Counted from the stretch's first letter, positions 17,460 through 47,542 are shown. The stretch: DNA of 64,000 nucleotides from Candidatus Nomurabacteria bacterium (GCA_023898465.1 CP060223.1:192001-256000), one strand, 5' to 3'. The notes: generated by a model from the letters alone, not told the origin. Translations and numbers: made by a program.

Positions 17460-17460
17460 T

Positions 17461-19716: not shown

Positions 19717-19717
19717 T

Positions 19718-22700
19718 ATGGCATTTGTACAACGACATTCACGAGCACTATTTATCAGTATATTCGCAACACTTGTTATAGTGGCTGCTGGACTTCTTAT
19801 TGCAAAGGTTAGTTTTGCTGGGCTCGAGTGGGAGCCGCAAAAACCTCCAGAAGTATATCAGAATAACAGTAGCATCGACTTCTATAAAGTTGATTTCCAA
19901 CAAAACCCCAGCGATAATAAATACTATGGTTGGGTGGTAGGTGAGGACTTAAGCGGTAAACAATCAAGCCTCCTTTACTTTAATGGCGCTTTTTGGAAAT
20001 CAATTACCGACGACGGTTTGGGTGCGGGGTCGACATCGGACCTCTTTGATGTTTCCGCTGTTTGGAATTCAGATATTGATCAGTATCTTGTTTGGGCAGT
20101 AGGGGAAAATCAAGCGCTCTGGTATTTAACTGACAGCGAGACTGTGTGTAATAGTGAAGCTATCCCATGTCCTGATAGTCCAGCTGGAGCTGTGACTTTA
20201 AATTCGGTTGAAGGTGCTTGGTATAGCGGAGATGATAAAGTTGCCTTTTTTGTAGGTGATAACGGGCACATTTATCATGCAGTGGCTGATGATTACCAAA
20301 GCGCATTCGCCTACACCGCAGCATTTGCTACGAGCGGGACCATCCGCGATATTGATTCTTTTGACGCTGCACATACTTGGGCAGTATCAAGTGATGGCAA
20401 GATATATTTTAATAGCGATTATCTGACAAACTCGTGGGTGCAACAAGCCTCTTTCCCAGGCATTGATTTTACAGGAGTGTCAGCGGCAGATGCCAGCCAC
20501 GTATGGGCTTCGGCAATTAACGGCACAAAAGGTCAAATTTATTTTTACGACGGGTCCACCTGGTCGCTCCAATTCACTACAGTGCTTGATATTCCGCTTC
20601 ATGATGTGAGTGCATTTTATAATCCTACTTTATCTATTTATAATGCCTTTGCGGTTGGTGATATTGATTCCTCTACAGGCAACGGAGGTGTTTATCAATA
20701 TAATGGTACAATTTGGGAACGGCAGGATTCAAATAATAATGGTGAAGTATTACGCGGCATTTCTGCTGCCAGCCTTATTGAGATACGAGCCGTTGGTGCG
20801 AACACCACACTCTTAACCAGCTCACCGGGAAATATATTTGGTTGGATTTGGCTAGGATCAAGCACAAGTAATGGAAGTGGCGATGCGCTGGGATGGGGAA
20901 GCGGAAGCTGCGCTAATCTTGATAGTTGTGAAAGTGCTGGCTTTACTTACGGCGTAAACATCCGCCGCAGTGGCACCAGTCAAGGTGCTTTGTCTGGTTA
21001 CTTTTGGCTAGGGAATGCTGATCCGGATGCTTATATTCCAAATGACTGTGACACCGATCCAGGCGTCGAAGCTTGTCAATCTAATTCGAGCATTAGCTGC
21101 ACTACTGATTTTGAATGTCGTTGCGCTATTAATTCAGCAGCTTGTTTTTCAACTGGTTGGATGTCGTTTAACAAAAAAGGCTCGGATGGTGTGACTGATG
21201 AGGCTGGCACACCTCCAGCTGCACCGTACAATGATGGTGCGCAAAACTATATTGCTCGATTTGATGCAAAGACGGGTAAGGTAACTGGCTGGGCTCGTTT
21301 ACTTTCCTTATACGAAGATCCAAGCACTGGTGGCTGGATTCGTTTGCGAGGGAATGCAGTTACTCCGAATGTAGGTGACTTACCAGTCCGAGACTGTAAA
21401 AATTGTGGCAAATTCTGCAGTCTCGACACTACGTATAAGTGTACAGTTGACGCTGACTGTAATGTAGACGCAGACGGTGATGGAACAGATGAAAACTACG
21501 GCCCGTGTAATGTGAGTGTTTGTAAGATTTGTAATGCTTTAAATGATGAAACAATCGTTTCTGCAAACATGTGCTCAAATACCGGCGGCACCTCATGTAC
21601 GCGACGTTGTGAGCTTAACAACAGTATTACCTGTACCGATGATGCAGATTGTATAGGATTTGGCTCATGTGTGAATGAGACTTTTTGTGATTCTTGTGTG
21701 ACCTATGACCAATATGGTGTAGCGATTGATGACGCAACTGGTAAGATTACCGGCTATGCTTGGAGTGGCGCGTCTACTACATATGGTCAACTTGGCTGGA
21801 TTGATTTTAATCGAGCAAACTATTATAGCCAGGCTTGGTTACAGACCCAATTTGGGAATATCTACGCTCAAGCTGATATCGGTAGCGTTGGTACGCCAGC
21901 TGCTCCAGAGGGTAAATGTAATGCGACATACGTGATTAGTGCAGCTGGTACCATCACTAACTTCTGTTCGCGCTACGAAGAAATCGATCCAACCGCCCCG
22001 CCAGGGGACTACACCACTCGCCCCTTCATCCAGCAAAACTACGATGAAATTTATTATCCAACCGAGGCAAATAACTATACGAACGTCCTAGGAAAATTGG
22101 ATCCAGATGCTCTGGTGCAGGATGTGGGCGCTGGAAAAAATAAATATGGCGATGAAATCATTACGGTAAACAGCGATGCTGATTTACTTGACCTTGGCTT
22201 GTGTGATGCTGACGGAGTAACGCTTGATGGCAAGGTATATCATGTGGTTGGAAATCTCAGTATCGGTGTCTGTAATCCTGGTAGCGGTGATGTTACTGAA
22301 TTGATTATTAAGAATTCTTCACTCGCCAGTGGGTCAGGGACAATAGTGGTTGATGGTAATCTCACCATTGATATGAATATAAGCTACGAACAAAGTTCAA
22401 TCTCTAATATTAGAGATTTGGCCTCCCTGGGTGTGATGGTGAAGAAAAATATGATAGTGACTGGTGATGTAGATTCAATCGTCGGCTCCTATATCGTCTT
22501 TGGAACCGATGAGACAGAAGCTAATAAATTTAGTGGAATTAAGATTGAAAACTCCTTAATCGAACGCTCCTTTAGTGCGCAAGGTCTCATGATCGCCCGA
22601 GGCTTCAAATTCGAGCGCACATATCGTGGCACCTTAATCGATCCACAACCAGCTGAGCAGGTGGTATACGATGGACGGGTGATTGCAAATACGCCGCCAG

Positions 22701-22756
22701 GATTCCGTGATTTTGCGAAAGTCTTACCAGTTATTCGAGAAACCATACCTTTTTAA
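19718..22756 (+). CDS. Large membrane-anchored/secreted surface protein G (BNR/Ycf48-like beta-propeller, Cys-rich repeats, beta-helix-like C-terminus)
   Basis: 1012 aa; N-terminal TM/signal (…AKVSFA|GLEWEPQ); repeats of type YxxWAVGxxG; Cys-dense region with repeated DxxTGK[VI]TG[WY]A units; no catalytic motif recognised. Confidence 0.55.
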   Translation: MAFVQRHSRALFISIFATLVIVAAGLLIAKVSFAGLEWEPQKPPEVYQNNSSIDFYKVDFQQNPSDNKYYGWVVGEDLSGKQSSLLYFNGAFWKSITDDGLGAGSTSDLFDVSAVWNSDIDQYLVWAVGENQALWYLTDSETVCNSEAIPCPDSPAGAVTLNSVEGAWYSGDDKVAFFVGDNGHIYHAVADDYQSAFAYTAAFATSGTIRDIDSFDAAHTWAVSSDGKIYFNSDYLTNSWVQQASFPGIDFTGVSAADASHVWASAINGTKGQIYFYDGSTWSLQFTTVLDIPLHDVSAFYNPTLSIYNAFAVGDIDSSTGNGGVYQYNGTIWERQDSNNNGEVLRGISAASLIEIRAVGANTTLLTSSPGNIFGWIWLGSSTSNGSGDALGWGSGSCANLDSCESAGFTYGVNIRRSGTSQGALSGYFWLGNADPDAYIPNDCDTDPGVEACQSNSSISCTTDFECRCAINSAACFSTGWMSFNKKGSDGVTDEAGTPPAAPYNDGAQNYIARFDAKTGKVTGWARLLSLYEDPSTGGWIRLRGNAVTPNVGDLPVRDCKNCGKFCSLDTTYKCTVDADCNVDADGDGTDENYGPCNVSVCKICNALNDETIVSANMCSNTGGTSCTRRCELNNSITCTDDADCIGFGSCVNETFCDSCVTYDQYGVAIDDATGKITGYAWSGASTTYGQLGWIDFNRANYYSQAWLQTQFGNIYAQADIGSVGTPAAPEGKCNATYVISAAGTITNFCSRYEEIDPTAPPGDYTTRPFIQQNYDEIYYPTEANNYTNVLGKLDPDALVQDVGAGKNKYGDEIITVNSDADLLDLGLCDADGVTLDGKVYHVVGNLSIGVCNPGSGDVTELIIKNSSLASGSGTIVVDGNLTIDMNISYEQSSISNIRDLASLGVMVKKNMIVTGDVDSIVGSYIVFGTDETEANKFSGIKIENSLIERSFSAQGLMIARGFKFERTYRGTLIDPQPAEQVVYDGRVIANTPPGFRDFAKVLPVIRETIPF

Positions 22757-22838: not shown

Positions 22839-23927
22839 ATGGGTTTATTTAACAAAAAAGAAAGCTATCTCGGGATTGATATCGGCACTTCTAGTATTAA
22901 AGTGTCTGAATTCAGAAACGAAGAAGGTCGTCCGCGCTTGTTAAGTTATGGCTTTGTCGAGCAACCAAGCGAGGTTTTAAAAAGCGATTCACCCGAAGCA
23001 ATCCAGCAAGTGGTGACTACCTTGTTAGGTGTGTTTAAAAAGGGCCATATGCAAAGCCGCAAAGTGGTTTCGGCTCTGCCTAGCTACGCAGTTTTCACAT
23101 CGATTTTGAGCTTGCCAGTAATGCCGAAGAAGGATTTATACTCGGCAATTCGCTGGGAGGCAAAAAAAATCGTCCCAATGTCCCTCGATGAAATGGTGCT
23201 AGACTGGCGCTTACTCCATGACCCAGAAGAGGCGACTGATGAAAAAGGTAAAAAGAGCAAAAAGGATCAAATAAGCAGTGGAGGTCCTAAAAATACCCGT
23301 GTGCTCATTACGGCAGCTCCAAAAAACTTAGTTAAACGTTACATTGATATATTTAAACTGGCTGAGCTCGAAATCGTCAGCCTAGAAACCGAGTCATTTG
23401 CCCTTGTTCGTTCACTTCTTGGACGAGATAATTCCACAGTGATGGTGGTGGATATCGGGGCAATTGCCACGGAAATAAGCGTTATACTCGATGGTATACC
23501 TTTTCTCAATCGAAGTATCGACGTAGGGGGAGAAACTATTACGAAATCAATAGCCAATAGTCTCAATATTGATGCAGAACGCGCTGAGCAAATTAAGCGC
23601 GACTTTGGCGTTATGAGTGGGCCGAGCACGAGTCAGATTCCTCGGGTTATTGAATTTGTCATGCAGAATATCGTGAATGAGATTCGCTATATTTTATCGA
23701 TGTATCAAAATCAGGGCGAAAAGCCAATTGAAAAAATTGTGTTGTCTGGTGGATCAGCCTTCCTGCCCAATTTGCCTAGCTATCTCGAGCAGATGATTAA
23801 GCTCAAATGCTATATTGGAGATCCGTGGGCTCGAGTAGTCTACCCAGTAGAATTAAAGCCAGTGCTAGATGAGATTGGACCACGCTTTGCCGTGGCAAAT
23901 GGTCTAGCCATGCGTGAAATTGTGTAA
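22839..23927 (+). CDS. pilM: Type IV pilus assembly protein PilM (actin-like ATPase fold)
   Basis: 362 aa; N-terminal LGIDIGTSSIKVSEF and overall PilM/FtsA-like architecture. Confidence 0.85.
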   Translation: MGLFNKKESYLGIDIGTSSIKVSEFRNEEGRPRLLSYGFVEQPSEVLKSDSPEAIQQVVTTLLGVFKKGHMQSRKVVSALPSYAVFTSILSLPVMPKKDLYSAIRWEAKKIVPMSLDEMVLDWRLLHDPEEATDEKGKKSKKDQISSGGPKNTRVLITAAPKNLVKRYIDIFKLAELEIVSLETESFALVRSLLGRDNSTVMVVDIGAIATEISVILDGIPFLNRSIDVGGETITKSIANSLNIDAERAEQIKRDFGVMSGPSTSQIPRVIEFVMQNIVNEIRYILSMYQNQGEKPIEKIVLSGGSAFLPNLPSYLEQMIKLKCYIGDPWARVVYPVELKPVLDEIGPRFAVANGLAMREIV

Positions 23928-23930
23928 TCT

Positions 23931-25244
23931 ATGGATATTAATCTCCTAAAAGATACTCAGCGATCTGAGGACCAGAAGAAAAAACAGTTGAACTCAACTG
24001 GTAATCAGGAGATGACAAATCCAGACAAGCTCCCGCCCGCTAAACCGGAGCCAAAGCTGCCTTCACGCTTTAGCACCTGGCTACAATCCCTCCGTGGTAA
24101 AAAAAATCCTAAAGAAATGCAAGAGGAAGAAATTATTCAAGAACCAATAAAAGCCCCAAAAAGTCCAACATTTGATGAGAGCGCTCGACCCAAGACCGAG
24201 GATATTTTTGCTGACCTCGACACACCCTCTTCTCAGCCTGAGTCAAATCCAGAGCCAATCATGTCAGATGAAGAGTCTTTACAAACCTTTACGCCGCCAG
24301 AGCCTAAGAAAAAGCAAGCAATGCCCAATGCGGTGAAACCCCCACGCTTCACTCAGAAGATGGAAGAAATTAAAATGACGCCTCCGCCAGAGTTACCCAA
24401 GAAAAAGGTAAAGCAGCCAAAAATTTCCTCATCGCGCGACCAATCCTTTTTGGTAAACTTGCTGCCAACTGAGTTTCAGCGATCAATTGACCCCCGTTCG
24501 AAATTAATCAGCCTGGGAATTACCGTTTTAATCACCGCCTTAGTGATTGGAGCTGCCTATGGAGCGTTGACGCTCTACCGCACCTCTATTTTAGAGCAGA
24601 TTCAGAGTCTACGTACGGAGCGCTCGGTTGTAGAAAGTACTATTAGCGATTTGCGCCCGAGTCAGCGTGAGGCGATTACCACAAAAGAGCGGACTGAATT
24701 GGTAAAGACCTTACTTGACCAGCACGTGTATTGGACAAGGTTTTTTGAAAAGCTTGAGGAATATACCATTGATGACGTGTATTACATTGGTGCCTTTAAT
24801 GGAAGTCTGGGTGGTCAAATTACGCTTTCGGCAGTTGGCACTTCCTTTAGTGCTCCGGCGCGCCAGTTAATTGCTTTTCAACAAGCCAGCGACTTTGTTT
24901 CCAGCGTGCGAATTACCTCAGCCCGTTCGGCTGATTCAGCCACTGGAACCACCGTCGGCAGCACCGGCACTGAGCAGATTTCTTTTTCGGTAACACTAAG
25001 CCTACTGCCTGACCTTTTCTATTATGATGCTTCTACCTTCCCCTTAGAGCGAATCGGCAATGTAACAACACCTTTGCCCGGTGACACTTCGCTCTTACCT
25101 GGTGCAACCGGAGTACCGGACTTAGGGACATCCACCAATACCAATACTTCAGGAGCTACAAATACGAACACCTCGACAAATACTAATTCAAGTACGAATA
25201 CCAACACCAGCACGACGCTTAATAGCAATATCTCGAACCCATGA
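23931..25244 (+). CDS. pilN: PilN-like pilus assembly protein with long disordered K/E/P-rich N-terminal region and Thr/Asn-rich C-terminal tail
   Basis: 437 aa; single TM helix (LISLGITVLITALVIGAAYGALTLY) then PilN-like periplasmic region; C-terminal low-complexity TNTNTS… tail. Confidence 0.55.
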   Translation: MDINLLKDTQRSEDQKKKQLNSTGNQEMTNPDKLPPAKPEPKLPSRFSTWLQSLRGKKNPKEMQEEEIIQEPIKAPKSPTFDESARPKTEDIFADLDTPSSQPESNPEPIMSDEESLQTFTPPEPKKKQAMPNAVKPPRFTQKMEEIKMTPPPELPKKKVKQPKISSSRDQSFLVNLLPTEFQRSIDPRSKLISLGITVLITALVIGAAYGALTLYRTSILEQIQSLRTERSVVESTISDLRPSQREAITTKERTELVKTLLDQHVYWTRFFEKLEEYTIDDVYYIGAFNGSLGGQITLSAVGTSFSAPARQLIAFQQASDFVSSVRITSARSADSATGTTVGSTGTEQISFSVTLSLLPDLFYYDASTFPLERIGNVTTPLPGDTSLLPGATGVPDLGTSTNTNTSGATNTNTSTNTNSSTNTNTSTTLNSNISNP

Positions 25245-25909
25245 AAATCTTCGGCAAAAGCTTCACTGAATTCTTAATTGAGCAATACCGCTATGTATTA
25301 GTGGCGGTTGCGCTTATACTTGCTTTGGTCGGCTATCTGGTGTTTATTGGACCGGAATTGCAAGAAGTCCGTCGTTTCGGTACAGCTGACTTAAAAGATG
25401 AGAAATCGAAATTAGAAGATCGGAAAACCTATTTGACTCGTTTACAGGGCATGCTTGATGCCTATAGTACGCTGAATCAAAATAGTTTAAGCGAGTTAGA
25501 GGGGGTGCTACCGACCTATGAAGATATCCCTGACCTCTTCATTATTGTAGAGGACTTGGCCAAGCAGAGTGGCTTATCACTCAGTTCTGTTTCTATTAAT
25601 CCGGCGAATTTAGAATCCGAATCAAGCGCAGCCGGTGCAAGTACAACATCGCTGAGTCAGTTGGCTAAATCAAAGAACTTAAAAGCCTTTGACATCTCAG
25701 TGACGGCTATTAATGGTACTTCATACGAAGATTTCAAAGACTTTATTACGAATATCGAAAATAGCAACCGCCTGTTTGATGTGCGATCTATGCAGTTTAC
25801 GCCGGAGCCGCGTCAGTCAGCTGACCGTACGAGTGAGACCTCAGCTGCTACGACTCCGTACTCAATCAACTTGCGCACTTATTATATTGACGGTGAGGAG
25901 GCTTCCTAA
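25241..25909 (+). CDS. pilO: PilO-like pilus assembly protein
   Basis: 222 aa; N-terminal TM helix, coiled-coil, then PilO-like domain; position between pilN and pilB. Confidence 0.5.
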   Translation: MKIFGKSFTEFLIEQYRYVLVAVALILALVGYLVFIGPELQEVRRFGTADLKDEKSKLEDRKTYLTRLQGMLDAYSTLNQNSLSELEGVLPTYEDIPDLFIIVEDLAKQSGLSLSSVSINPANLESESSAAGASTTSLSQLAKSKNLKAFDISVTAINGTSYEDFKDFITNIENSNRLFDVRSMQFTPEPRQSADRTSETSAATTPYSINLRTYYIDGEEAS

Positions 25910-25912: not shown

Positions 25913-26206
25913 ATGGCACTGGTACAGAAAAGCAATAAAAAGAGCGTCACTATTTTACTCAGCGTCCTGGTCGGTGTCACGGTGATTGGTTTACTTGTGT
26001 ATTTCCTGGTTATCGCTCCACCGGATGTTGATCCAAATGTGAATACCTCCAATAATATTGTGCAGAGAGATTTGCCAATCTACACTACCTTTGGCGAAGA
26101 CTTGTTTGATGATCCGCGTTTCCGCGCCCTCGTGCCCTATGGTGATCTGCCGGTTGATCTAGGTGACGTGGGGAGGACTAACCCATTTGAGAAGCCATCC
26201 CCATGA
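25913..26206 (+). CDS. Small membrane protein of unknown function in pilus operon
   Basis: 97 aa; single TM helix (VTILLSVLVGVTVIGLLVYFLVIA); no motif recognised. Confidence 0.4.
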   Translation: MALVQKSNKKSVTILLSVLVGVTVIGLLVYFLVIAPPDVDPNVNTSNNIVQRDLPIYTTFGEDLFDDPRFRALVPYGDLPVDLGDVGRTNPFEKPSP

Positions 26207-27984
26207 GCGCTGCCCGACGTAGCAGCTCGGTTCAGGACGATTCCGTCTTAGGCATGCCTAGGGCGATTATTAATGACTTGGAAGAACGGGGATTAATCAG
26301 CGAGGAAACTCTAGCTCAATATGTAGAGCAGGCTAAAGCAAAGAAGTTTACCCTCGAACGGATTCTCTTAGATACTCGAGCAGTGAGGGAAGAGGATATC
26401 ACCAAAGCAAAGGGCAAGCTTTTTAACGTGCCCTATGTTGAGCTATTTGGAAAAATAGTACGCGCTGAGGTGCTGAATCTAATACCACAGGAGTTAGCGC
26501 AAAACTACAGCATGGTAGCCTTTAGCCGAGATGCTGATGAGCTATCTGTGGCAATGGTGAATCCATCTGACTTTAAGGCGCTAGAAGCAATTGAATTCAT
26601 TGCTCGTAAAAATCGCCTCAAATTAAAGTATTTCATTGCCTCGGAAACAGGCGTGAAGCACATATTGCAGCAATACGAGAGTCTTTCCGCTGAAGTTGAA
26701 GAAGCGCTCAAGGATACAGAGTCAGAAGGCGACGCAGAGGTAAAGTTAAACATTGCCGAGCCGGGCATGGAGGAGGTAATCCGCCAAGCTCCGGTTTCAA
26801 AGATGGTTTCGGTTATTATGCGACACGCAGTAGAGGGTAAAGCTTCTGACGTGCACATCGAGCCAGTCGGCAATGAATCTCGCATTCGCTATCGTATTGA
26901 TGGTGTGCTGCATACCTCGCTTGTGTTGCCAAAGCATGTCCATGCCTCAATCGTTGCGCGCATTAAGGTGCTGTCTAATTTGAAGATTGATGAAACGCGT
27001 GTGCCGCAAGATGGTCGCTTCCGCATGAATATTGACGGGAGAGATGTTGACTATCGTGTTTCTACACTGCCGCTCGTCAACCAAGAAAAAGTCGTGATGC
27101 GTATTCTCGACACTAGTGGCGCCATGACTGATTTGCAGGATTTGGGTTTCGACGGGCGCAATTACGAAATTATTCAGGAGAACATTGATAAATCCCACGG
27201 AATGATTTTAGTCACTGGTCCGACCGGTTCTGGTAAGTCAACCACCCTCTATGCCATTATGAGTCGCTTGAATGAGGAATCTGTGAATATTGTGACGCTG
27301 GAAGATCCGGTTGAATATTATATGAAAGGAGTAAACCAGTCACAAATTAATCCTGACGTTGGACTTACCTTTGCAGCAGGTTTGCGCTCCATCTTACGTC
27401 AGGACCCTGACATCGTCATGGTTGGAGAAATTCGGGATACTGAAACTGCAGATTTGGGTGTGCACGCCTCATTGACTGGTCACGTGGTACTCTCAACGCT
27501 TCACACCAACGACGCTTTTGGAGCAATACCGCGTTTTATTGACATGAAGATCGAACCATTCTTACTTGCTTCATCGCTCAATGTTGTCATTGCCCAACGC
27601 CTGGTCCGTCGTATTTGTCAGCATTGTACGACCACGATGGAGATACCGGCCGCCTTGCAAAAAGAGGTACAAGAGGGCTTAAAAGAATTAAAGCCTGAGC
27701 AGTTACCAAAAGGTATTAGTCTAAATTCGCCTAAGTTTTATCGAGGTAAAGGTTGTGTACGCTGTGAAAATACCGGCTATAAAGGCCGTGTTGCTATTGC
27801 TGAGGTGCTAGATATGACTGAAAATTTGAAGAAGGTGATCACTGGTGAACAGGCGAGAATTTTAGAGAACATTCACGAAGAATTTAATAGACAGGGCCTA
27901 TTAACCATGAAGCAGGATGGCTTACTGAAGGCTCTGCGCGGCTTAACCACCATTGAAGAGGTGTGGGACGCTACCCGAGAATAA
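26203..27984 (+). CDS. pilB: Type IV pilus assembly ATPase PilB (GspE family) with N-terminal T2SSE_N domain
   Basis: 593 aa; Walker A GPTGSGKSTT, Asp box DPDIVMVGEIRDTETA, His box TGHVVLSTLHTNDA, C-terminal tetracysteine CQHC…CVRC. Confidence 0.9.
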   Translation: MSAARRSSSVQDDSVLGMPRAIINDLEERGLISEETLAQYVEQAKAKKFTLERILLDTRAVREEDITKAKGKLFNVPYVELFGKIVRAEVLNLIPQELAQNYSMVAFSRDADELSVAMVNPSDFKALEAIEFIARKNRLKLKYFIASETGVKHILQQYESLSAEVEEALKDTESEGDAEVKLNIAEPGMEEVIRQAPVSKMVSVIMRHAVEGKASDVHIEPVGNESRIRYRIDGVLHTSLVLPKHVHASIVARIKVLSNLKIDETRVPQDGRFRMNIDGRDVDYRVSTLPLVNQEKVVMRILDTSGAMTDLQDLGFDGRNYEIIQENIDKSHGMILVTGPTGSGKSTTLYAIMSRLNEESVNIVTLEDPVEYYMKGVNQSQINPDVGLTFAAGLRSILRQDPDIVMVGEIRDTETADLGVHASLTGHVVLSTLHTNDAFGAIPRFIDMKIEPFLLASSLNVVIAQRLVRRICQHCTTTMEIPAALQKEVQEGLKELKPEQLPKGISLNSPKFYRGKGCVRCENTGYKGRVAIAEVLDMTENLKKVITGEQARILENIHEEFNRQGLLTMKQDGLLKALRGLTTIEEVWDATRE

Positions 27985-28008: not shown

Positions 28009-28420
28009 TATGACAAAGGCAACAAGTAGTGCAAAAGAGCAGTCAAAAAAGAAGAATCCCCAAGTGCTTATTGTGGAGGATGATACCTTCCTGTCTGGAA
28101 TGTACGTCACCAAACTTGAGCTAGAGGGGATTGATGTAGAGTTGGCCAGTGATGGTCAGCAGGCTATTAATGTCGTGCAGAAGAGGAGACCAGATGTCAT
28201 CCTGCTCGATGTGGTGATGCCTAAGATGTCGGGATTCGATGTCTTGACTTGGTTAAAAAAGACCAAAGAGACAAAAGATATCCCGGTTATCTTATTAACC
28301 AATTTGGGAGAGAAAGAAGACGTACAAAAAGGCTTGAAGCTTGGCGCTGTCGATTATCTCATCAAAGCACATTTCTTGCCATCAGAAGTGGTAGAAAAGA
28401 TTAAGCGTATTGTTCGCTAG
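28009..28420 (+). CDS. Stand-alone response-regulator receiver (CheY-like REC) protein
   Basis: REC signature (…VLIVEDD…, …DVILLDVVMPKMSGFDV…, …PVILLTNLG…); start chosen at ATG 28009 (ORF track starts 27953 inside pilB); paralog of 42883 gene. Confidence 0.75.
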
Positions 28421-28421: not shown

Positions 28422-29498
28422 ATGCCCTCATCCGACACTATAGCTATTCAGAAAATTTTGGCCTCGGCGGCTGATTATGGAGCCTCTGATATTCACATTG
28501 TGCCAGGTAATCCACCGACCCTGCGCGTGGACGGTAAATTAGTGCCTTTAGAGAATGAAGTAGTGGTCACGCCGGACCTGATGACCGCTTTAGAAGAACT
28601 TTTACTTACCCCTGAGCAACGTGAGCGTTTCCATGCTGACAAGGAGCTTGTCACAGCAACCAGCTTAGAGAATCGCCAACGTTTTAAAGCCAGCTTTTTT
28701 TACCAAAAGGGTTTACCAGCCAGTTCGCTCCGTTTAATTGCCAGCCGACCAAAGTCTGTCCGAGATTTAGGCTTACCGGATAATATTGAGGACCTCGCCC
28801 GTTTGTCATCTGGACTCGTGGTTATTTCAGGTCCCTACGGATCAGGACGGTCTTCAACGGTGTCCGCCTTACTCCAAACAATTAATCAGCAGCGCGCCGC
28901 TCATGTGGTTACGATTGAGTGGCCGATTGAGCATCTGTTTGTCAACGAGAAGAGTATGATAGAGCAGCGTGAAGTAGGTCGTGACACACAATCGTTTACC
29001 AAGGCGATTGAAACGGCAACTCGAGAAGATGTGGATGTGGTGATGGTGTCTGAGATGGAGGATCCAAATGTGGTGCAGTCAGTGTTGCAAATTGCCTCGA
29101 CTGATCGTTTAGTCGTGAGTATGTTATTAGCCGATTCGGTGCCGCAAACGGTAGAAAAAATCCTTGACGCATATCCGGCTGAGGAACAGGAGCAGGCTCG
29201 ACGTATTTTTGCCGAACATCTGGGTGGTATCGTGTGTCAGCGTCTCTTACCGCGTGTGGGCGGCGGGCGCATTGTGGTAGCAGAAATCCTGCTGCCCACT
29301 GATCCGGTGCGCGCCCTTATTCGCGATGGGCAGATTGGTCAGCTCAAGACTATGCTACAAAGCTCCCAAGAGGAGGGATTAGTTTCTTTTGATCGTTATT
29401 TAGCCGCTTTAGTACGTAATGGTGAAATATTAGTTGATGATGCATTAGCCAATGCAAATGATCGGGCCGAGCTCTCAGCCGCCCTACGAGGACGATAA
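28422..29498 (+). CDS. pilT: PilT-like retraction ATPase homolog with degenerate catalytic motifs (predicted pseudo-ATPase)
   Basis: Aligns along full length to canonical PilT but Walker A is GPYGSGRSST (Lys to Arg), EDPIE box is EWPIE, Asp-box Arg replaced (VSEMED), His box TGHLVFGTLHT replaced by TDRLVVSMLLA. Confidence 0.8.
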   Translation: MPSSDTIAIQKILASAADYGASDIHIVPGNPPTLRVDGKLVPLENEVVVTPDLMTALEELLLTPEQRERFHADKELVTATSLENRQRFKASFFYQKGLPASSLRLIASRPKSVRDLGLPDNIEDLARLSSGLVVISGPYGSGRSSTVSALLQTINQQRAAHVVTIEWPIEHLFVNEKSMIEQREVGRDTQSFTKAIETATREDVDVVMVSEMEDPNVVQSVLQIASTDRLVVSMLLADSVPQTVEKILDAYPAEEQEQARRIFAEHLGGIVCQRLLPRVGGGRIVVAEILLPTDPVRALIRDGQIGQLKTMLQSSQEEGLVSFDRYLAALVRNGEILVDDALANANDRAELSAALRGR

Positions 29499-29504: not shown

Positions 29505-30713
29505 ATGCCAAATTTTGAATATACTGCACGAGATAGTCAGGGAAATACCAGTACAGGTATTGTTGAAGCGCCAACTGAGAGCATAGCGCAGGATGTTTTG
29601 CGTGAACGCGGTTTGATAGTGACCGGTATTAGCGAGCGTCAGCGCAAAGCGCTTTTTCAAACCTCGCTGAACATATTTAATCGCGTGCCTCGTCGTGATG
29701 TCACTATTTTTTCACGGCAGCTGGCAGTGATGATTTCGGCCACGGTACCGATTGTGCAGGCTTTGCGTATCCTCGTGAAGCAGACAGAAAACGTAGCTTT
29801 TAAGATTATTATCTCAGAGGTTGCTGATGAGGTTGACGGTGGATCAAAGCTTTCCGCCACTTTAGGGAAGTATCCTCATGTGTTCAATGATTTCTTTGTG
29901 CACATGATTCGATCTGGTGAAACCACGGGTAAGTTGGATGAAACGCTCAACTATTTAGCTGATCAGCAGGAAAAAGACTACGATTTGATCTCTAAGATCA
30001 AAGGCTCGATGACCTATCCGGTCTTTATTCTGGGTGCTTTGGTGGCTGTCGGTATCCTTATGATGATTTTTGTGATTCCACAGCTGACCGATATCCTGAC
30101 AGCTGGTGGGCAAGAGCTGCCGATTATGACGCGAGCTTTAATCGCTACCTCGGCATTTTTGCAGACAAAGTGGTGGGTGTTGCTTATTGTGATTGCGCTT
30201 TTGTACGCGGCATATCGCTTTGTGGAGCGGTCTGAGCAAGGTCAAGACGTGATTGATCGCTTGAAGCTGCACTTCCCAATTTTTGGACAAATTTTTCAGC
30301 GTATTTACCTTGTCCGTTTCGCGCGCAGCTTATCAACCTTAATCTCCAGCGGCGTGCCAATTACTCGCTCACTCGAGATTGTGGCTGATGTGATTGATAA
30401 CCGTCTCTATCGTAAGTTAACCAAAGAGACTATTGAAGCAATTGAGGGAGGTAAATCTATCTCCTATGTCTTTGCGCAAAATAAAGATATCCCTCCTATG
30501 TTGACGCAGATGATGAGCATTGGTGAATCAACTGGTAAGCTTGATTTCATTTTAGAAAAGCTGGCAAATTTCTACAGTCGTGAGCTAGAAAACAACGTAG
30601 CAAACCTGGTTAGCCTGATCGAACCTTTGATTCTGGTGGTTATGGGTGTGGCAGTTGCCTTCCTCGTTATCGCTATTCTCTTGCCGATGTATAATTTGTC
30701 ATCAGCCATTTAG
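29505..30713 (+). CDS. pilC: Type IV pilus inner-membrane platform protein PilC (GspF family)
   Basis: 402 aa; two GspF repeats, three TM segments; conserved …QLAVMISATVPIVQAL… and …RFARSLSTLISSGVPI…. Confidence 0.85.
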   Translation: MPNFEYTARDSQGNTSTGIVEAPTESIAQDVLRERGLIVTGISERQRKALFQTSLNIFNRVPRRDVTIFSRQLAVMISATVPIVQALRILVKQTENVAFKIIISEVADEVDGGSKLSATLGKYPHVFNDFFVHMIRSGETTGKLDETLNYLADQQEKDYDLISKIKGSMTYPVFILGALVAVGILMMIFVIPQLTDILTAGGQELPIMTRALIATSAFLQTKWWVLLIVIALLYAAYRFVERSEQGQDVIDRLKLHFPIFGQIFQRIYLVRFARSLSTLISSGVPITRSLEIVADVIDNRLYRKLTKETIEAIEGGKSISYVFAQNKDIPPMLTQMMSIGESTGKLDFILEKLANFYSRELENNVANLVSLIEPLILVVMGVAVAFLVIAILLPMYNLSSAI

Positions 30714-30892
30714 CTAAAGTTAGCCGAAAAAGTAGGGGATTTGTTGTCGAATGTGGAAAAGTAAGAACACTTGTTCGGTATTTGCAAAAATGGTACACTA
30801 CAACTGTACAAATTGCGTACACTAAAAGCCTCGGCATATTTCACGCGTGAAGTATGTACAACGGCAAAATGAAAGGGGGTGAGACAGAAAGA

Positions 30893-31459
30893 ATGAAAAA
30901 AGGATTCACACTTATTGAGCTCTTGGTCGTGATCGCGATCATCGGTATTTTGTCTGCAATTGGGCTCGTCTCACTAAACGGTGCACGTGAAAAGGCCCGT
31001 GACGCCCAAGCCAAGTCTGACCTTGGTCAGATGCGCACTGCGTTGACCTTGTTTGCTGATGATAACGGTGGAAGCTTTGTTGGAGTGCAGGTAGCAGGCG
31101 CAAGTAATACGCCTGATTGTTCTGGTGACACAAACGACGCCGGATCGACCGCAGCTGGTAATGATTAAGTGTGGGATAGCAACGACGGTTACCGATTATC
31201 TCTCAACCTATCTAAATTCACCACGAGCTTGGTTACTGGCGCGGACGCGTGCGAAGGTCGTTATGGTTATGTGGCAAATGAATTCAGCTGCTACCGTAAA
31301 CGACGCTGATGATTATGTGTTGTTCTATAGACCGAAACAGGTGATGGACAAAACTACTACAAGCTTAGCGCTGACGGGCAGTCGGTTGATTATTCAGATA
31401 ATGAAACAGGTGTTCCTACCTGTCCAAACACGGGTGCGGCTTGTACGCTAAATCCGTAA
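30893..31459 (+). pseudogene. Type IV pilin paralog 1 (promoter-proximal copy), disrupted by in-frame stops and frameshifts
   Basis: MKKG|FTLIELLVV… N-terminus is identical to paralog 3; ORF stops after 91 aa (TAA 31166-31168). Pilin-like sequence then continues in the same frame (…GADACEGRYGYVANEFS), shifts frame (…DDYVLFYRPKQV) and returns (…GDGQNYYKLSADGQSVDYSDNETGVPTCPNTGAACTLNP*), with further in-frame TGA/TGA/TAG at 31307-31330. Confidence 0.55.
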
Positions 31460-31470
31460 GGTTGATAAAC

Positions 31471-31503
31471 AAAAAAGGGGTGCTAGTTGACCCCTTTTTT
31501 GTT
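31471..31503 (+). terminator. Rho-independent terminator after pilin 1
   Basis: AAAAAAGGGG-tgctagttga-CCCCTTTTTTT hairpin plus T-run. Confidence 0.6.
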
Positions 31504-31552
31504 TATTGTGCTATACTTACCGCATTGAAGCTTAAGTTAAAGGGGGTAGTTA

Positions 31553-32074
31553 ATGAAAAAAGGATTCACACTTATTGAGCTCCTAGTTGTTATCGCGATT
31601 ATTGGAGTACTTTCTGCTATTGGGCTCGTCTCACTAAACGGTGCACGTGAAAAGGCCCGTGACGCCCAAGCCAAGTCTGACCTTGGTCAGATGCGTACAG
31701 CATTAACTTTATTTGCTGACGATAGCGGTGGATATTATCCAGATGTACAAAGTGATAGTCCTGGTGTGCCAGATGAGAGCGCTCCCAATTTAACTGAGGG
31801 CGGTATTTGGGATGGCACCGGTGGGTCAATAATTCCAAGTTATCTATCAGCAGAACTTGAATCCGGCTCAAGTACTCCTTACGGTTATGTATCGAATGGA
31901 CTAGATGCTACTCCAAATGTATCTAGCGATTATGGGCTCTATTACTTGTTAGAATCTGGCGATGGAGCGCGCTACTACGTGCTTACTGCCAATGGAACAG
32001 TGTATGATTATGATGCTAATATTGGAGCGCCACCGCTTTGTATCGATGAAAGTCTGCCTTGTGAAGTAAGCTAA
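31553..32074 (+). CDS. Type IV major pilin paralog 2
   Basis: 173 aa; prepilin leader MKKG|FTLIELLVVIAIIG; conserved N-terminal 70 aa shared with paralogs 1 and 3; C-terminal Cys pair (…PPLCIDESLPCEVS); own extended -10 promoter TGcTATACT upstream. Confidence 0.8.
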   Translation: MKKGFTLIELLVVIAIIGVLSAIGLVSLNGAREKARDAQAKSDLGQMRTALTLFADDSGGYYPDVQSDSPGVPDESAPNLTEGGIWDGTGGSIIPSYLSAELESGSSTPYGYVSNGLDATPNVSSDYGLYYLLESGDGARYYVLTANGTVYDYDANIGAPPLCIDESLPCEVS

Positions 32075-32110
32075 TTACAAAATGGAAATGAAAGGGGGTG
32101 AGACAGAAAG

Positions 32111-32666
32111 AATGAAAAAAGGATTCACACTTATTGAGCTCTTGGTCGTGATCGCGATCATCGGTATTTTGTCTGCAATTGGGCTCGTCTCACTAAACGG
32201 TGCACGTGAAAAGGCCCGTGACGCCCAAGCCAAGTCTGACCTTGGTCAGATGCGAACTGCTTTGACCTTGTTTGCTGATGATAATGGTGGAGAGTATCCG
32301 GGAGAAGGTACAAACGGACAGCCAGATGCTAGCGGCACGGGATCTGGCGGAGGGCTTGGTGTATGGGCTGCCAGTGGGGCAATAATAGGCCCGTATCTTA
32401 GTTCTGAACTAGAGTCACCTTCGAGCACTAGCTATAGTTATCTCTCAAACAGCGGAGCTGCACCTGACACTACAGGAACGGATTTCGTTTTGTATTATCA
32501 GTTAGAGTCAGGCGCAGGTGATCATATCTACTCACTTTTAGCTGATGGTACTGTTCGAGACTACGATGACGGGGACACTAACTTACCTTGTTGTCAGAAT
32601 GATGCGCTTTGCCACTATAATGACCCTGACCCGTTGCCGACAGATGCTTCTTGCGATGGAAGCTAG
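32111..32666 (+). CDS. Type IV major pilin paralog 3
   Basis: Start at MKKGFTL (ORF track begins 32082); 5' ~230 bp incl. RBS identical to paralog 1; divergent C-terminal domain with Cys-rich end (…LPCCQNDALCHYNDP…ASCDGS). Confidence 0.8.
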
Positions 32667-32693
32667 TTAGTCAAACACTATGTGTAAGAATCA

Positions 32694-32720
32694 AAAAAGA
32701 GCAGAAATGCTCTTTTTTGA
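32694..32720 (+). terminator. Rho-independent terminator after pilin 3
   Basis: AAAAAAGAGCA-gaaa-TGCTCTTTTTTG hairpin plus T-run. Confidence 0.55.
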
Positions 32721-32813
32721 ATTTGGTGTAGCAGGTAGTTCCGGGAGTTTAAGTTATGTAATGCAAGGTGGTTGCCTTGGTGATTTTCGCTATTTCTTGT
32801 ATAATAATACTAC

Positions 32814-33404
32814 ATGTCGAATTCGCTTTATCACGGTTTGCTTAGTCTGATCTTGCTTGCTCCCTACATTGCGACTGTCCAATGGCGGAAAGCGATGAGT
32901 CGTAAGATTTTTATTTGGTCAGTCAGCGGTATCATTGTTCTGATGTGTATACAAATGAGTATTCAGAGTGTCCAACTTTGGAATGAATACTCTAACGATC
33001 CGGTTGCCGCCTATTTACTACCACCTCATTCGAATGTCGTTTATTCGCATATTCTGAGATTAGGACAGCCGATACTTGTAGCAGTTATTACCGCACTAGT
33101 TACCTTTTCTGTTCTTTACTTTGCAAAAAAATACTTCCGACTCGGACAGTATGATGCTGAGGATATTCGCTGGTTGAGTTTGTCAGCTCTCTTGAGTTCT
33201 TGGCCAGGCGTCCTTATTACTTTTGTAAGCATATTTCTCATTGCTGTGTTGGCTCAGATAGTACGGGTGCTCATGGCAATGCGTAGTTCAGCTGAGCCAC
33301 CTCGACTTGTCCTCACCCCCTTTGTCGCCCCTGTCACCATTTTTATCCTCTGGTTTCTCCCAGATATTCTCCATGTTACCGGACTTGAAAAAATCCGATT
33401 CTAG
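32814..33404 (+). CDS. Hypothetical polytopic membrane protein within pilin cluster
   Basis: 196 aa; 4-5 predicted TM helices; overlaps start of downstream pilin by ~30 nt. Confidence 0.45.
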   Translation: MSNSLYHGLLSLILLAPYIATVQWRKAMSRKIFIWSVSGIIVLMCIQMSIQSVQLWNEYSNDPVAAYLLPPHSNVVYSHILRLGQPILVAVITALVTFSVLYFAKKYFRLGQYDAEDIRWLSLSALLSSWPGVLITFVSIFLIAVLAQIVRVLMAMRSSAEPPRLVLTPFVAPVTIFILWFLPDILHVTGLEKIRF

Positions 33405-33897
33405 AAAAGGATTTACCCTAATCGAATTATTAGTAGTGATTGCAATTATCGGCATACTTTCGGGTATTGGTATTACACAATTTAATAAGTCGCGCGAAAA
33501 AGCACGTGATGCACAACGTAAATCAGACCTGGCGAATATTAGATCCGCACTATTGCTTTATTATGATGATTACGATTTTCTTTATCCAACAACCGTGACT
33601 GTAGGTGCACCGGACGCTTCCTTAGACGGCGTAGGTGTATTTGATGCGGATGAGGGCAATAATCCAATAGTACCCGAATATCTTGCGTCTGTGATATTAC
33701 CAAAAACTGACGACACCAATCATGAGTATTGGTATGACGCGACTGATGATGGGAGTGCGTATCTTCTGTATACTCATTTAGAGGGAGCTGATACAGACTG
33801 GTATTGGCTTGATTCTAACGGCAAAAACGGTGTTGAGTTAAATGCCAATACCCATACGGCAGATAATTGCAATGCAGGAACTAGCTGTACGTGGTAA
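33373..33897 (+). CDS. Type IV pilin paralog 4
   Basis: Prepilin leader …SRKG|FTLIELLVVIAIIGILSGIG…; start chosen at internal ATG 33373 (ORF track 33307). Confidence 0.7.
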   Translation: MLPDLKKSDSRKGFTLIELLVVIAIIGILSGIGITQFNKSREKARDAQRKSDLANIRSALLLYYDDYDFLYPTTVTVGAPDASLDGVGVFDADEGNNPIVPEYLASVILPKTDDTNHEYWYDATDDGSAYLLYTHLEGADTDWYWLDSNGKNGVELNANTHTADNCNAGTSCTW

Positions 33898-33906
33898 AAT
33901 ACATAT

Positions 33907-34326
33907 ATGGAAAACGCTAAGCAAAAAGGATTAGGACTAATTGAGCTCATTATCATTATCGGCCTTTTTGGCTTATTGATCGTGCTTGGCGTGATAATGT
34001 TAGGGAACGAGCGGGCTCGGACGCGGGATAGCCAGCGTTTGGCTGATATGACACGGGTGCAGGCAGCTTTTCAGCTGCTCTATTACACACAGGCAAGCTA
34101 CGCCGAGGCAGCGGATGGCTGTGATGAGGTGGGGACTGCGGTGGCTGCGTGTGGATTAGATCGCTACCTGAACGGAATTGGTACTTTGCAAGATCCGGGG
34201 TCTTTCTCTTACCGCATTGCCAAAGTGCCGGATGAGCACGGCTACGCGGTTGAGTTTACCTTAGAGCGCGGATATGGCACCCTAGCCCCGGGGTCGCATT
34301 TCTTGACTGAGCAGGGGATTCAATAA
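33907..34326 (+). CDS. Pseudopilin / minor pilin (prepilin-type N-terminus)
   Basis: 139 aa; …QKG|LGLIELIIIIGLFGLLIVLGV… with Glu at +5. Confidence 0.6.
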   Translation: MENAKQKGLGLIELIIIIGLFGLLIVLGVIMLGNERARTRDSQRLADMTRVQAAFQLLYYTQASYAEAADGCDEVGTAVAACGLDRYLNGIGTLQDPGSFSYRIAKVPDEHGYAVEFTLERGYGTLAPGSHFLTEQGIQ

Positions 34327-34334: not shown

Positions 34335-35099
34335 ATGGGGGATATGGACCAAAGCATCGCACTCATTGGCGCTATTGCGGTAGCTGTCTTTGGTTTGATT
34401 ATTGGCAGCTTTTTAAATGCAGCGCTCTGGCGGATGCGGGTACGGCGCTCTTTAGTAAGCGATCGTTCGCGATGTCCACATTGCAAGCACGTGCTTGGTC
34501 CAGCTGAACTCATCCCAGTGTTTAGTTTTTTCTGGCAGCGTGGTCGCTGTCGGCACTGCCGCCGCAAAATTTCCTGGTGGTATCCCGGCATAGAGCTGGC
34601 AACAGCGGCAGTGTTTTGCGTGAACTGGTTTCGTTTTGGTTTATCAACTGAGTTTTTTTACGTCACTGTTATTTCCGCTTTCCTCATTGTCATTTTCGTC
34701 TATGATGCGCGCTACAGTTTAATTCTCGATCGAGTTTCTTTGCCAGGCGCGGCATTGGCCTTCATCGGCAGTTTGTTACTTGGTGTGCCTTTTTGGGACG
34801 TGCTGCTCGGCGCGCTGATTGGTGGAGGATTCTTTTTCCTGCAGTATGTCATTTCCCGTGGTCGCTGGATTGGCGGAGGTGATATGCGTCTCGGGCTGCT
34901 GCTTGGTGCCTTCTTAGCCTGGCCGGAAATTGTCTTTGCACTGTGCCTCGCCTATATATTGGGATCGTTATATGGCATTGGTCTGGTTTTGAGTAAGAAG
35001 AAGTCTTGGCAAAGCGCTATTCCCTTCGGCACCTTTTTGAGTTTAGCAGCATACATTTTTTATTTAATGAGCGATCGTGTCCTTCCATACCTCACCTAA
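34335..35099 (+). CDS. pilD: Prepilin peptidase PilD (A24 family) with N-terminal zinc-binding Cys pairs
   Basis: 254 aa; …IGSFLNAALWRM…CPHCKHVL…CRHCRRKI…; multiple TM helices; conserved Asp-containing loops (…GGGDMRLGLLLGAFL…). Confidence 0.85.
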   Translation: MGDMDQSIALIGAIAVAVFGLIIGSFLNAALWRMRVRRSLVSDRSRCPHCKHVLGPAELIPVFSFFWQRGRCRHCRRKISWWYPGIELATAAVFCVNWFRFGLSTEFFYVTVISAFLIVIFVYDARYSLILDRVSLPGAALAFIGSLLLGVPFWDVLLGALIGGGFFFLQYVISRGRWIGGGDMRLGLLLGAFLAWPEIVFALCLAYILGSLYGIGLVLSKKKSWQSAIPFGTFLSLAAYIFYLMSDRVLPYLT

Positions 35100-35751
35100 A
35101 AAATCGCAGCACGGTTTCACAATGATTGAGCTAGTTGTCTCAATCGCAATTTTTGGCATACTCGCCGGGATTCTTGGTTGGAATTTTAGCCGCTTCCGAG
35201 AAAATGATGATTTACGTCTAGCCGCTGAACAGCTGATGACTGATCTTCGTACTGCGCAAAATACTGCCATGACCGGTCAGGTGATTGATGATCCAGGACC
35301 AGGAGATCCAGCCGTGCCAATTGGCGGCTATGGCATTCATTTTAATCTCAACATAGGCAACAACGAATATTGGATGTTTGCGGATCGAGAGAGTTACAGT
35401 GGGACAACTTGTGTTCCTGTACGCAACGAGCGCTTTGATCAATTAGTAGCCGACCCTCCGAGCACGTGTATGACTGATGGGGTGAATGATGATTTAGATG
35501 CAGCGCCTAATCCGGTACAATTACCCGGCGATGTGATTATTGAAGCCTTGCGAGTAGATGGAACACAAAGCATTACCGACGTGGCCTTTTTGCCTCCTAA
35601 ACCACTCCCTTATGTAGCTTACGGCGATCTGACAAATGCCGCCGTAGCTGGGAAAACTATTGAGATTGACCTCCGTCATACCGTGACAAACCAGCTCCGA
35701 AGGGTTACTGTAGTAGGAGCATCAGGTCAAATAAGTGTCAGCACACCATAA
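35077..35751 (+). CDS. Minor pilin, FimT/GspH-like
   Basis: 224 aa; prepilin N-terminus …QHG|FTMIELVVSIAIFGILAGI…. Confidence 0.65.
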   Translation: MSFHTSPKKSQHGFTMIELVVSIAIFGILAGILGWNFSRFRENDDLRLAAEQLMTDLRTAQNTAMTGQVIDDPGPGDPAVPIGGYGIHFNLNIGNNEYWMFADRESYSGTTCVPVRNERFDQLVADPPSTCMTDGVNDDLDAAPNPVQLPGDVIIEALRVDGTQSITDVAFLPPKPLPYVAYGDLTNAAVAGKTIEIDLRHTVTNQLRRVTVVGASGQISVSTP

Positions 35752-35757
35752 TTATCT

Positions 35758-36342
35758 ATGCATCGATTTTCACACAATCAAGAAGGTCAAACCCTGGTCG
35801 AGGTGATTATCGCGGTTTCGATTCTCTTGGCTGGTATTGTTACCTCCTTAACCCTTGGCATTGTGACGGTGCGGGCTGGTCAAGTGTCCCAAAACCGTAC
35901 GATTGCAGATAATCTAGCTCGGGAGGGTTTAGAGTTGGTGCGTACTATGCGCGATACCAATTGGCTGCAGGATAATGTATGGGACCAGGGCTTATGTGCC
36001 TCTGATGACACTACTGCTATTCCAGATTTTTTACCGGATGTAAATGCGTGGAGTCTTGATTTCAGCGTAGATGATTTTGCGGACGCCAATGCACAGGTCT
36101 TATATAGAGAAGATCGAGAAAATTCACTTCGCCCGCTTGATTACTACATGCAAACAGCTGGACCTCGACCGGACGGATCAACGCCGAGTCGCTTCCGTCG
36201 TTTATTAACGATTAGTTCTGATGACGGTAGCTGTGTCGATGCTGATGTCTCGTATACAGTGAAGTCAGAAGTGCAGTGGGATGAGGGTGGAACAACCCAT
36301 TCCTCAATAGTAGAAGAGCGACTCTTTGATTGGAGGACATGA
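35758..36342 (+). CDS. Minor pilin, PilV-like
   Basis: 194 aa; …EG|QTLVEVIIAVSILLAGIVT…. Confidence 0.6.
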   Translation: MHRFSHNQEGQTLVEVIIAVSILLAGIVTSLTLGIVTVRAGQVSQNRTIADNLAREGLELVRTMRDTNWLQDNVWDQGLCASDDTTAIPDFLPDVNAWSLDFSVDDFADANAQVLYREDRENSLRPLDYYMQTAGPRPDGSTPSRFRRLLTISSDDGSCVDADVSYTVKSEVQWDEGGTTHSSIVEERLFDWRT

Positions 36343-38113: not shown

Positions 38114-41035
<2,922 letters not shown>

Positions 41036-46024: not shown

Positions 46025-46061
46025 AGTAGCCTGAAAAACTGAGTAAAGCGAATGGATATAC

Positions 46062-46090
46062 TTGACAAATTATATAATTAGTAGTATAAT
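46062..46090 (+). promoter_or_regulatory. Consensus sigma70 promoter (TTGACA-17-TATAAT) driving the GC-rich islet
   Basis: -35 TTGACA 46062-46067; 17-nt spacer; -10 TATAAT 46085-46090; followed by ~170-nt structured leader and SD GGGGGAAG before ATG 46266. Confidence 0.55.
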
Positions 46091-46265
46091 ACTCAGTTCT
46101 ACGCTAAAAATAGCGAAATTTGTCAAGCGTATGAACCCCCTCCGTATTGGCCTCGGACAAAATCGAGGTCAGTGCGGAGGGGCGCACATTGAGAATTCAT
46201 CTCGTGTATGTTACTCCGGCTTGCTTCGACGGAAGTAGGTCTAGACCAAACGTTTGGGGGAAGAA

Positions 46266-47516: not shown

Positions 47517-47542
47517 GAGCCTAGCGGACACGAGATGAACCC

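Follow-up and report, generated by a model that had tools for sequence, protein, structure and literature searches.

The window analysed here is a stretch of 64,000 nucleotides from Candidatus Nomurabacteria bacterium (GCA_023898465.1, CP060223.1:192001-256000), a member of the ultrasmall Patescibacteria, and carries a complete type IV pilus operon of the Gram-positive style. The gene located between a receiver protein gene and pilC in this operon (28422–29498, plus strand), here called pilT*, encodes a protein derived from the retraction ATPase PilT in which catalytic residues of all four motifs are substituted, and it very probably belongs to a clade of pseudo-ATPases maintained by selection. 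Traits expected of a pseudoenzyme were found in it: homology to a family and its fold, substitution of the catalytic residues, conservation of these substitutions, and purifying selection. We class this clade as a pseudo-ATPase subfamily of PilT, a result that is moderately surprising to a specialist and that can be tested.

Sequence motifs and predicted fold of pilT*

The open reading frame (ORF) of pilT* encodes 358 amino acids with zero internal stops, and the product is 100% identical to the NCBI entry 'MAG: PilT/PilU family type 4a pilus ATPase [Candidatus Nomurabacteria bacterium]'. Residues 7–357 align to residues 13–364 of the Aquifex aeolicus PilT 2EWV with one 1-residue gap near the C-terminus (phmmer, E 8e-77), which bears out the end-to-end alignment claimed in a reading made beforehand from the DNA sequence (the original prediction). 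As the alignment is near-ungapped, the motifs are substituted and not shifted; a shift, which the original prediction had named as what could overturn it, is excluded by substitutions that stay in register in the alignment to PilT structures.

In comparison with canonical PilT, represented by A. aeolicus (2EWV/2GSZ), Geobacter metallireducens PilT4 (6OJX), and Pseudomonas aeruginosa (3JVV), pilT* has the same length and the same two-domain fold, with 34–38% identity in near-ungapped alignments to 2EWV and 6OJX. The AlphaFold2 model, for which the alignment of the clade was the input, has a predicted local distance difference test (pLDDT) score of 92.5 and comprises the N2D and the RecA-like C-terminal domain (CTD). 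The top Foldseek matches of this model were all PilT, and ATP-bound PilT4 gave a template modelling (TM) score of 0.94 and a root-mean-square deviation (rmsd) of 1.4 Å. The TIGR01420 profile (pilT_fam) covers residues 9–350 (model positions 2–343) with 319.9 bits, a marginal pass over the cutoff of 319.1. pilT* is nearer to PilT 2EWV (262 bits) than to PilU 9N32 (192 bits), and it has no C-terminal extension.

The Walker A motif, GPTGSGKSTT in canonical PilT, reads GPYGSGRSST in pilT*, with Lys changed to Arg at position 143 and the Thr equivalent to T133 changed to Tyr. The Asp box TIEDPIEY reads TIEWPIEH, where Asp is replaced by Trp and both Glu are kept. In the Walker B region, DPDVIFVGEMRD corresponds to DVDVVMVSEMED, with Gly to Ser and Arg to Glu, so that GEMRD is SEMED and the catalytic Glu is present; these flanking Gly and Arg are 100% conserved in intact PilTs. 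In the His box, ETGHLVFGTLHT corresponds to STDRLVVSMLLA, the first His being replaced by Arg and the second by Leu. The numbering of the G. metallireducens protein (PilT-Gm) is that of pilT* minus 6, and T133, T221, and H230 of PilT-Gm, which have been proposed as a proton shuttle with H230 coordinating the gamma-phosphate, are all replaced.

The retained residues are the catalytic Glu E211 (equivalent to E204 of P. aeruginosa PilT), E166 and E170 of the Asp box, the P-loop glycines, and T146. Of the AIRNLIRE helix of PilT there is a remnant, PVRALIRD, in which Arg, Ile, and Arg are kept and Asn is lost. The view that every key motif is degenerate is thus correct for the Walker A Lys, the Asp-box Asp, the Walker B Gly and Arg, and the His-box His, but it does not extend to the retained residues. 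Likewise, the change of Arg to Glu (VSEMED) is real, but this residue follows the Walker B catalytic Glu and is not part of the Asp box, to which it had been assigned. PilB, as anticipated, keeps 4/4 motifs intact in its translation: GPTGSGKSTT, TLEDPVEY, VGEIRD, and LTGHVVLSTLHT.

Conservation of the degenerate motifs and selection

The homologue samples consist of the best-scoring matches among those listed. About 110 of the 120 best homologues (41–63% identity) have degenerate motifs of this type, and those with a named source are all from Patescibacteria. Intact PilTs appear among these 120 only at 41–46% identity. The degenerate consensus is GPFGSGRTAT, TIE[KQR]PIE, DVDV..VSEM[ED][ED], and ESSRLVISTMNT. 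The same degeneracy was found in at least 19 loci of species-representative genomes and in 49 metagenome contigs, which were retrieved with a nucleotide pattern that singles out the degenerate P-loop plus Asp box. Orthologues therefore share the substitutions, as the original prediction had proposed to verify. In a profile search of 1.84 billion representatives clustered at 50% identity, about 55 degenerate clusters were present among the best 150, some of them far more eroded than pilT*.

Sequences were considered degenerate when they had at most 4 of the 8 canonical catalytic residues. In a neighbour-joining tree based on corrected p-distances of 176 sequences with less than 90% identity, 117 of them degenerate, the sequences of this kind (at least 117) formed one clade with no intact member inside and with bootstrap support of 100/100. 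This support was still 100/100 with all four motif regions removed. A definition based on the first His alone was discarded, since it gave no clean split (0/100) and a few clade members have re-acquired this residue.

The ratios of nonsynonymous to synonymous substitution rates (dN/dS) for the two closest pairs were 0.034 and 0.055 for pilT*, 0.039 and 0.044 for pilB, 0.051 and 0.059 for pilC, and 0.039 and 0.065 for pilM, values that are limited to few close pairs in which dS is near saturation, and dS is saturated in most comparisons. With dS at this level, pilT* is under purifying selection in close pairs, with dN/dS indistinguishable from those of pilB, pilC, and pilM, and so the idea that the degeneracy is conserved by selection is upheld. 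In deeper comparisons, the amino-acid change in pilT* is approximately 1.5–2x that of pilB or pilC.

These data also bear on the reading of pilT* as a decaying relic, a strain-specific lesion, or a sequencing or assembly error, to which Trp167 and Leu236, not common to the clade, would lend some support. The frame is intact and full-length, the protein matches the deposited one completely, the degeneracy is kept in more than 100 distinct homologues with dN/dS of 0.03–0.06, and the predicted fold is confident; conservation and selection together already refute this reading.

Eighty-three positions are conserved at 90% or more in 59 intact PilTs; the clade kept 44 of them and lost 14 (77, 78, 143, 167, 210, 213, 223, 227, 229, 235, 236, 238, 242, and 246), and the losses are concentrated around Walker A, the Asp box, Walker B, and the His box. 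The residues kept in the clade include G137, G140, G142, T146, E166, E170, Q182-R183-E184, D188, D203, and R87, besides E211 in 73–84% of the members. Compared with canonical PilT, the clade has replaced the Walker A Lys, the Asp of the Asp box, both His of the His box, and the Gly and Arg on either side of the catalytic Glu, as well as the residues that correspond to T133 and T221. The counterpart of PilT-Gm Arg-83 has usually changed too, and is Lys in 68% of the clade. The new residues are themselves conserved across the clade at R143, S210, R229, and D238. Position 143 is Arg in 73–82% of the members and Lys in 17–27%, position 229 is Arg in 81–87%, and the Asp-box Asp position is occupied by K, Q, or R. 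In 54 of the 117 members, the charges at positions 167 and 213 have changed places, from -/+ to +/- (odds ratio 6.6, phylogeny ignored).

Judging from these residues, the catalytic pocket appears remodelled rather than decayed and may possibly still hold nucleotide, and hydrolysis at the rate of a motor is unlikely in it. Classically, Walker A Lys-to-Arg mutants of RecA-type ATPases bind ATP and barely hydrolyse it.

The same residues could suggest that pilT* is a working ATPase with non-canonical chemistry and still the retraction motor of the operon, in which P-loop Lys is replaced by Arg, His-box His by Arg or Lys, and Asp-box Asp by Lys, a change for which the Glu in place of the former Arg would compensate. 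The replacements are non-random, as indicated by the frequencies of Arg143, Arg229, and the catalytic Glu, and the 167/213 charge swap points to a remodelled pocket. However, we consider this explanation quite improbable. Single substitutions (E204A, H229A, and K136A) abolish PilT function, with E204A and H229A abolishing twitching in P. aeruginosa, and the residues concerned are described as essential; because of these mutational data on canonical PilT, pilT* would lack catalytic activity. In addition, none of the three residues proposed as a proton shuttle is left, and some sub-branches (L016, L024, L026, L013, L014, and L023) lack the catalytic Glu as well. An erosion that reaches this Glu suggests that catalysis is not under selection, and the more eroded 50%-identity representatives mentioned above go much further. 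The degenerate clade also evolves faster than the intact PilTs, with root-to-tip distances of 1.1–1.5 vs 0.8–1.0.

In one sub-branch of the clade, pilT* and pilM form a unit of two genes, pilT*-pilM (L007, 10001–12141; L020, 10001–12139); pilT* of this sub-branch keeps the Walker A Lys, and its remaining motifs are degenerate. No pilB or pilC was found within 10 kb of this unit in either locus, and in L020 it is located between pth and mfd-dprA-topA.

Position of pilT* in the operon

The degenerate loci present the same gene order as the window, pilM-N-O-(97 aa)-pilB-REC-pilT*-pilC-pilins-pilD, where REC denotes the stand-alone receiver protein. The pilT* ATG is 1 nt past the stop of the REC gene, and pilC starts 6 nt past the pilT* stop. 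This position by pilB and pilC is also that of canonical PilT. An intact PilT occupies the same slot, pilB-REC-pilT-pilC, in other Patescibacteria, for example in the loci L018, L021, L022, L029, L032, L039, L040, L046, L048, L076, and L077, and another intact PilT (P0111) is found in the order pilB-pilT-pilC. Besides, the intact Paceibacterota PilTs P0115 and P0117 are part of the arrangement pilT-pilC-pilin-pilD-...-ligA-gatC-gatA, which matches the downstream neighbourhood in the window.

In a three-group tree, the degenerate clade was grouped with the in-operon intact PilTs of the candidate phyla radiation (CPR, the Patescibacteria), with bootstrap support of 69/100, and not once with the orphan PilTs described below (0/100). 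The original prediction had taken pilT* for a PilT paralogue located between pilB and pilC. Since an intact PilT fills the same slot elsewhere, pilT* is not an added paralogue; on gene order and sequence relationship, it is the positional orthologue of the PilT of the operon, apparently descended from the operon-encoded retraction ATPase. A tblastn search revealed no second PilT or PilB homologue in the window besides pilT* and PilB themselves.

Intact orphan PilT in related genomes

A genome scan showed an intact PilT without pilus neighbours in a Falkowbacteria genome (L063). Used as query, this protein retrieved Patescibacteria proteins of 340–350 aa as the best 120, mostly 55–60% identical to it. 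All eight canonical catalytic residues are present in 120/120 of these orphan-type PilTs, which constitute their own clade (100/100). They are PilT-like, with 352 bits to PilT-4 vs 279 bits to PilU.

Both types of PilT were found on the same contig in relatives of the organism studied here. In CAZAMC010000003.1 the degenerate operon lies at 51–72 kb and the orphan PilT at 160–181 kb; in JBDRMK010000017.1, at 34–55 kb and 157–170 kb; and in JBFOMN010000215.1, at 83–90 kb and 220–227 kb. The distance between the two genes in these coordinate-confirmed contigs is 100–140 kb. Three further candidate co-occurrences have identical contig size in bp (608,530; 277,403; 467,981) as their only link, and look-ups of P0321 and P0272 gave contigs other than those of 608,530 and 467,981 bp. 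The six cases cover several sub-branches of the degenerate clade, including a neighbour of the branch of the window. A pairing of P0313 with L012, both of 12,304 bp, was discounted as a coincidence, as the operon fills L012 entirely.

The claim that no active PilT is present holds, then, within the 64-kb window, but the relatives carry a canonical PilT elsewhere on the same contig. By comparison with them, the genome that includes the window is likely to encode an intact orphan PilT too. Because the orphan PilT is present in related genomes, the pilus system is probably not retraction-less.

Directly downstream of the orphan PilT gene, L140 (6001–8007), L141 (6001–8089), and L146 (3001–5034) encode a cyclic nucleotide (cNMP)-binding (+ GAF) protein. 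HU, YmdB, and RNase Y are often encoded nearby, and L143 has genes for a histidine kinase and a receiver just upstream. An orphan motor under its own signalling control is suggested. None of the usual neighbours (HU, YmdB, RNase Y, PPDK, and the cNMP-binding protein) was found within the window.

Tandem double-PilT proteins of 700–1020 aa were also observed (P0344–P0351, P0378, P0401, P0409, and P0441), some of them with both halves intact. P0351, on a 2.7-kb contig, and P0401 are fusions in which the N-terminal half is a degenerate PilT and the C-terminal half a canonical one.

Proposed role and comparison with known systems

The best explanation for these data, which we hold with moderate confidence, is that pilT* encodes a PilT-derived ring for docking and control that does not hydrolyse ATP. 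Such a pseudo-PilT would dock at the PilC/PilM base of the pilus, would bind nucleotide at most, with no turnover at motor rate, and would work with active motors or gate them. A structural or regulatory role other than that of a motor, already put forward in the original prediction, is a sensible reading of the substituted residues, their conservation, and the purifying selection. In the version that appears most likely, proposed here tentatively, the pseudo-PilT would bridge or admit the active orphan PilT, by analogy with PilT(K136A) and PilU of Vibrio cholerae. Competition with PilB for the platform would be a further effect, which the adjacent receiver protein might control.

In V. cholerae, PilT K136A supports PilU-driven retraction, is stable at PilC, and bridges PilU to the machine. 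The likeness consists in a non-hydrolysing PilT together with an active PilT-family paralogue, which co-occur here in related genomes. On the other hand, K136A is a laboratory mutant, whereas the degenerate state in Patescibacteria is naturally fixed and ancient; and the partner in V. cholerae is PilU, whereas the partner candidate here is PilT-like. The fusions of a degenerate with an intact PilT (P0351 and P0401) fit a physical partnership, and the pilT*-pilM units of L007 and L020 fit a platform-binding role.

Several points weigh against this proposal. We infer hexamer formation and binding to PilC and PilM by pilT* from the conservation of the fold alone, and a Walker A Arg combined with a catalytic Glu still in place might permit slow hydrolysis. 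pilT* is unusually divergent within its clade, with Trp167 in the Asp box and Leu236 for the second His. The orphan PilT does not have the PilU-like C-terminal extension, which is the element contacting PilT in V. cholerae, and an intact PilT in this organism, with a 1.08-Mb genome, is deduced from its relatives. The 69/100 grouping with the in-operon PilTs comes from a simple neighbour-joining tree.

A wider formulation, possible but doubtful, is that evolution has divided the functions of PilT between two genes across much of the Patescibacteria, leaving only docking and gating to the operon pseudo-PilT and ATP hydrolysis to the orphan PilT. Under such a split, the orphan PilT, often followed by the cNMP-binding/GAF protein, would supply hydrolysis, and the two proteins could form a natural retraction motor of two stacked or exchanging rings, controlled by the receiver protein.

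The main rival of the adaptor model is a brake or clutch, in which the dead ring would compete with PilB for the PilC/PilM platform, phosphorylation of REC would switch the occupancy, and no PilT partner would be needed. The effect would be that extension is terminated or paused, the pilus is locked, or slow motor-independent retraction is allowed. In V. cholerae, a PilT without ATPase activity stays stably attached to the platform; the REC gene is always a direct neighbour; and the L007/L020 sub-branch, where pilT* is paired with pilM alone, suggests that pilT* and the platform are directly linked. Motor-independent retraction has been documented in other systems. However, the REC gene is also found beside intact operon PilTs and so is not specific to the dead form, and an intact orphan PilT exists on six related long contigs with pilT*, a co-occurrence that the brake must take as incidental. 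We regard the brake as unlikely by itself. It is compatible with the adaptor model, and the two are not mutually exclusive.

Like the genomes with a degenerate operon PilT and an orphan PilT, those of Geobacter (PilT1–4) and Myxococcus (PilT and four paralogues) encode two or more proteins of the PilT family, which divide the work among them. Unlike pilT*, every one of the paralogues described there has retained the four motifs (Walker A, Asp box, Walker B, and His box). PilU, a PilT-dependent accessory ATPase, also differs from pilT*, which is closer to PilT, has no PilT-contacting extension, and has degenerate motifs. In the Patescibacteria, the type IV pilus locus 1 of the Saccharibacteria TM7x is likewise an operon with pilB, pilT, pilC, pilM/N/O, pilD, and pilins; a single PilT has been described there, and its Walker A and B boxes are reported to be conserved.

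A further parallel exists at the base of another type IV filament. The archaellum protein FlaH is RecA/KaiC-like, and its ATPase site is incomplete; it binds ATP and has a modulating effect on the motor ATPase FlaI. The difference is that FlaH belongs to an unrelated subfamily and is not derived from a motor ATPase.

Type IV pili are enriched in the CPR and are thought to be central to the interaction of these ultrasmall bacteria with host cells, and in cultivated Saccharibacteria they are needed for episymbiotic host binding. CPR genome surveys record PilT merely as present, and in a full-text literature search that covered part of the journals no description of a naturally degenerate PilT, or of a degenerate CPR PilT, was found. 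If the operon PilT is dead in a large share of the lineages, predictions of twitching or retraction from gene presence need revisiting, and the real retraction motor may be an unlinked gene. The clade would also represent a natural, long-selected separation of platform docking from the ATPase activity of PilT, so far available only in engineered Walker A mutants. The conserved replacement residues are a ready set of variants for studying how PilT-family rings bind to PilC and to partner ATPases.

Organization of the pilus operon and neighbouring regions

The genes of the operon and of its downstream neighbourhood are listed in Table 1.

Table 1. Genes of the type IV pilus operon and downstream genes in the window
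Feature	Position	Strand	Evidence and remarks
pilM	22839–23927	+	Pfam PilM_2, E 1e-45
pilN-like membrane protein gene	23931–25244	+	Position, and homologue at the same place in related loci; no Pfam match
pilO	25241–25909	+	Pfam PilO, E 1.4e-5; syntenic in related loci
Small membrane protein, 97 aa, between pilO and pilB	25913–26206	+	No Pfam match
pilB, extension ATPase	26203–27984	+	T2SSE, E 3e-128, and MshEN domain; TIGR02538, 563 bits
Stand-alone receiver (REC) protein gene, between pilB and pilT*	28010–28420	+	Pfam Response_reg, E 1e-26; ATG at 28010
pilT* (pseudo-PilT), 358 aa	28422–29498	+	PilT-derived, catalytic residues substituted
pilC, platform protein	29505–30713	+	Pfam T2SSF, E 2e-62, two repeats
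Type IV pilin gene cluster	30854–34326	+	Class III signal peptide KGFTLIELLVV (translations); 5' ends repeated
pilD, prepilin peptidase	34335–35099	+	Pfam A24_N_bact and Peptidase_A24
Minor-pilin-like genes, downstream of pilD	35077–37175	+	N-terminal pilin-type hydrophobic segments (translations)
ligA	39011–41035		Downstream neighbourhood of the pilus genes
gatA	41358–42818		Downstream neighbourhood of the pilus genes

The translation of the REC gene shows the acidic pocket EDD, the phospho-acceptor Asp (LLDVVMP), the Thr (LLTNLG), and the Lys (DYLIKA). The position of this gene is conserved beside degenerate and intact operon PilTs alike. The 97-aa protein encoded between pilO and pilB has homologues at the same position in L001–L004, L006, L025, and several metagenome loci.

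Three tandem pilin genes (30854–32666) have common 5' ends and divergent C-terminal parts, and the repeats at 30867–31072 and 32086–32291 present 99% identity across 206 nt. The first copy (30854–31168) stops early, and an ORF in another frame (31125–31451) encodes a pilin-like C-terminal sequence. The arrangement could be explained by a frameshift in this copy or by a cassette for variation.

Just upstream of pilM, the region 9883–22756 encodes very large predicted secreted or membrane proteins of 542, 1169, 558, 262, 771, and 1012 aa, with no Pfam match except for fn3-like domains in two of them. Comparably large unannotated genes precede pilM in L083.

The Rfam scan of the whole window returned two tRNAs and nothing else, and thus no rRNA or other Rfam family at 46001–48000, where the G+C content has a peak of 0.57 vs approximately 0.46 elsewhere. 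This peak coincides with a 420-aa ORF (46254–47516) whose product has a signal or anchor segment, an Ala/Thr/Pro-rich linker, and no Pfam match, and the region may be acquired DNA.

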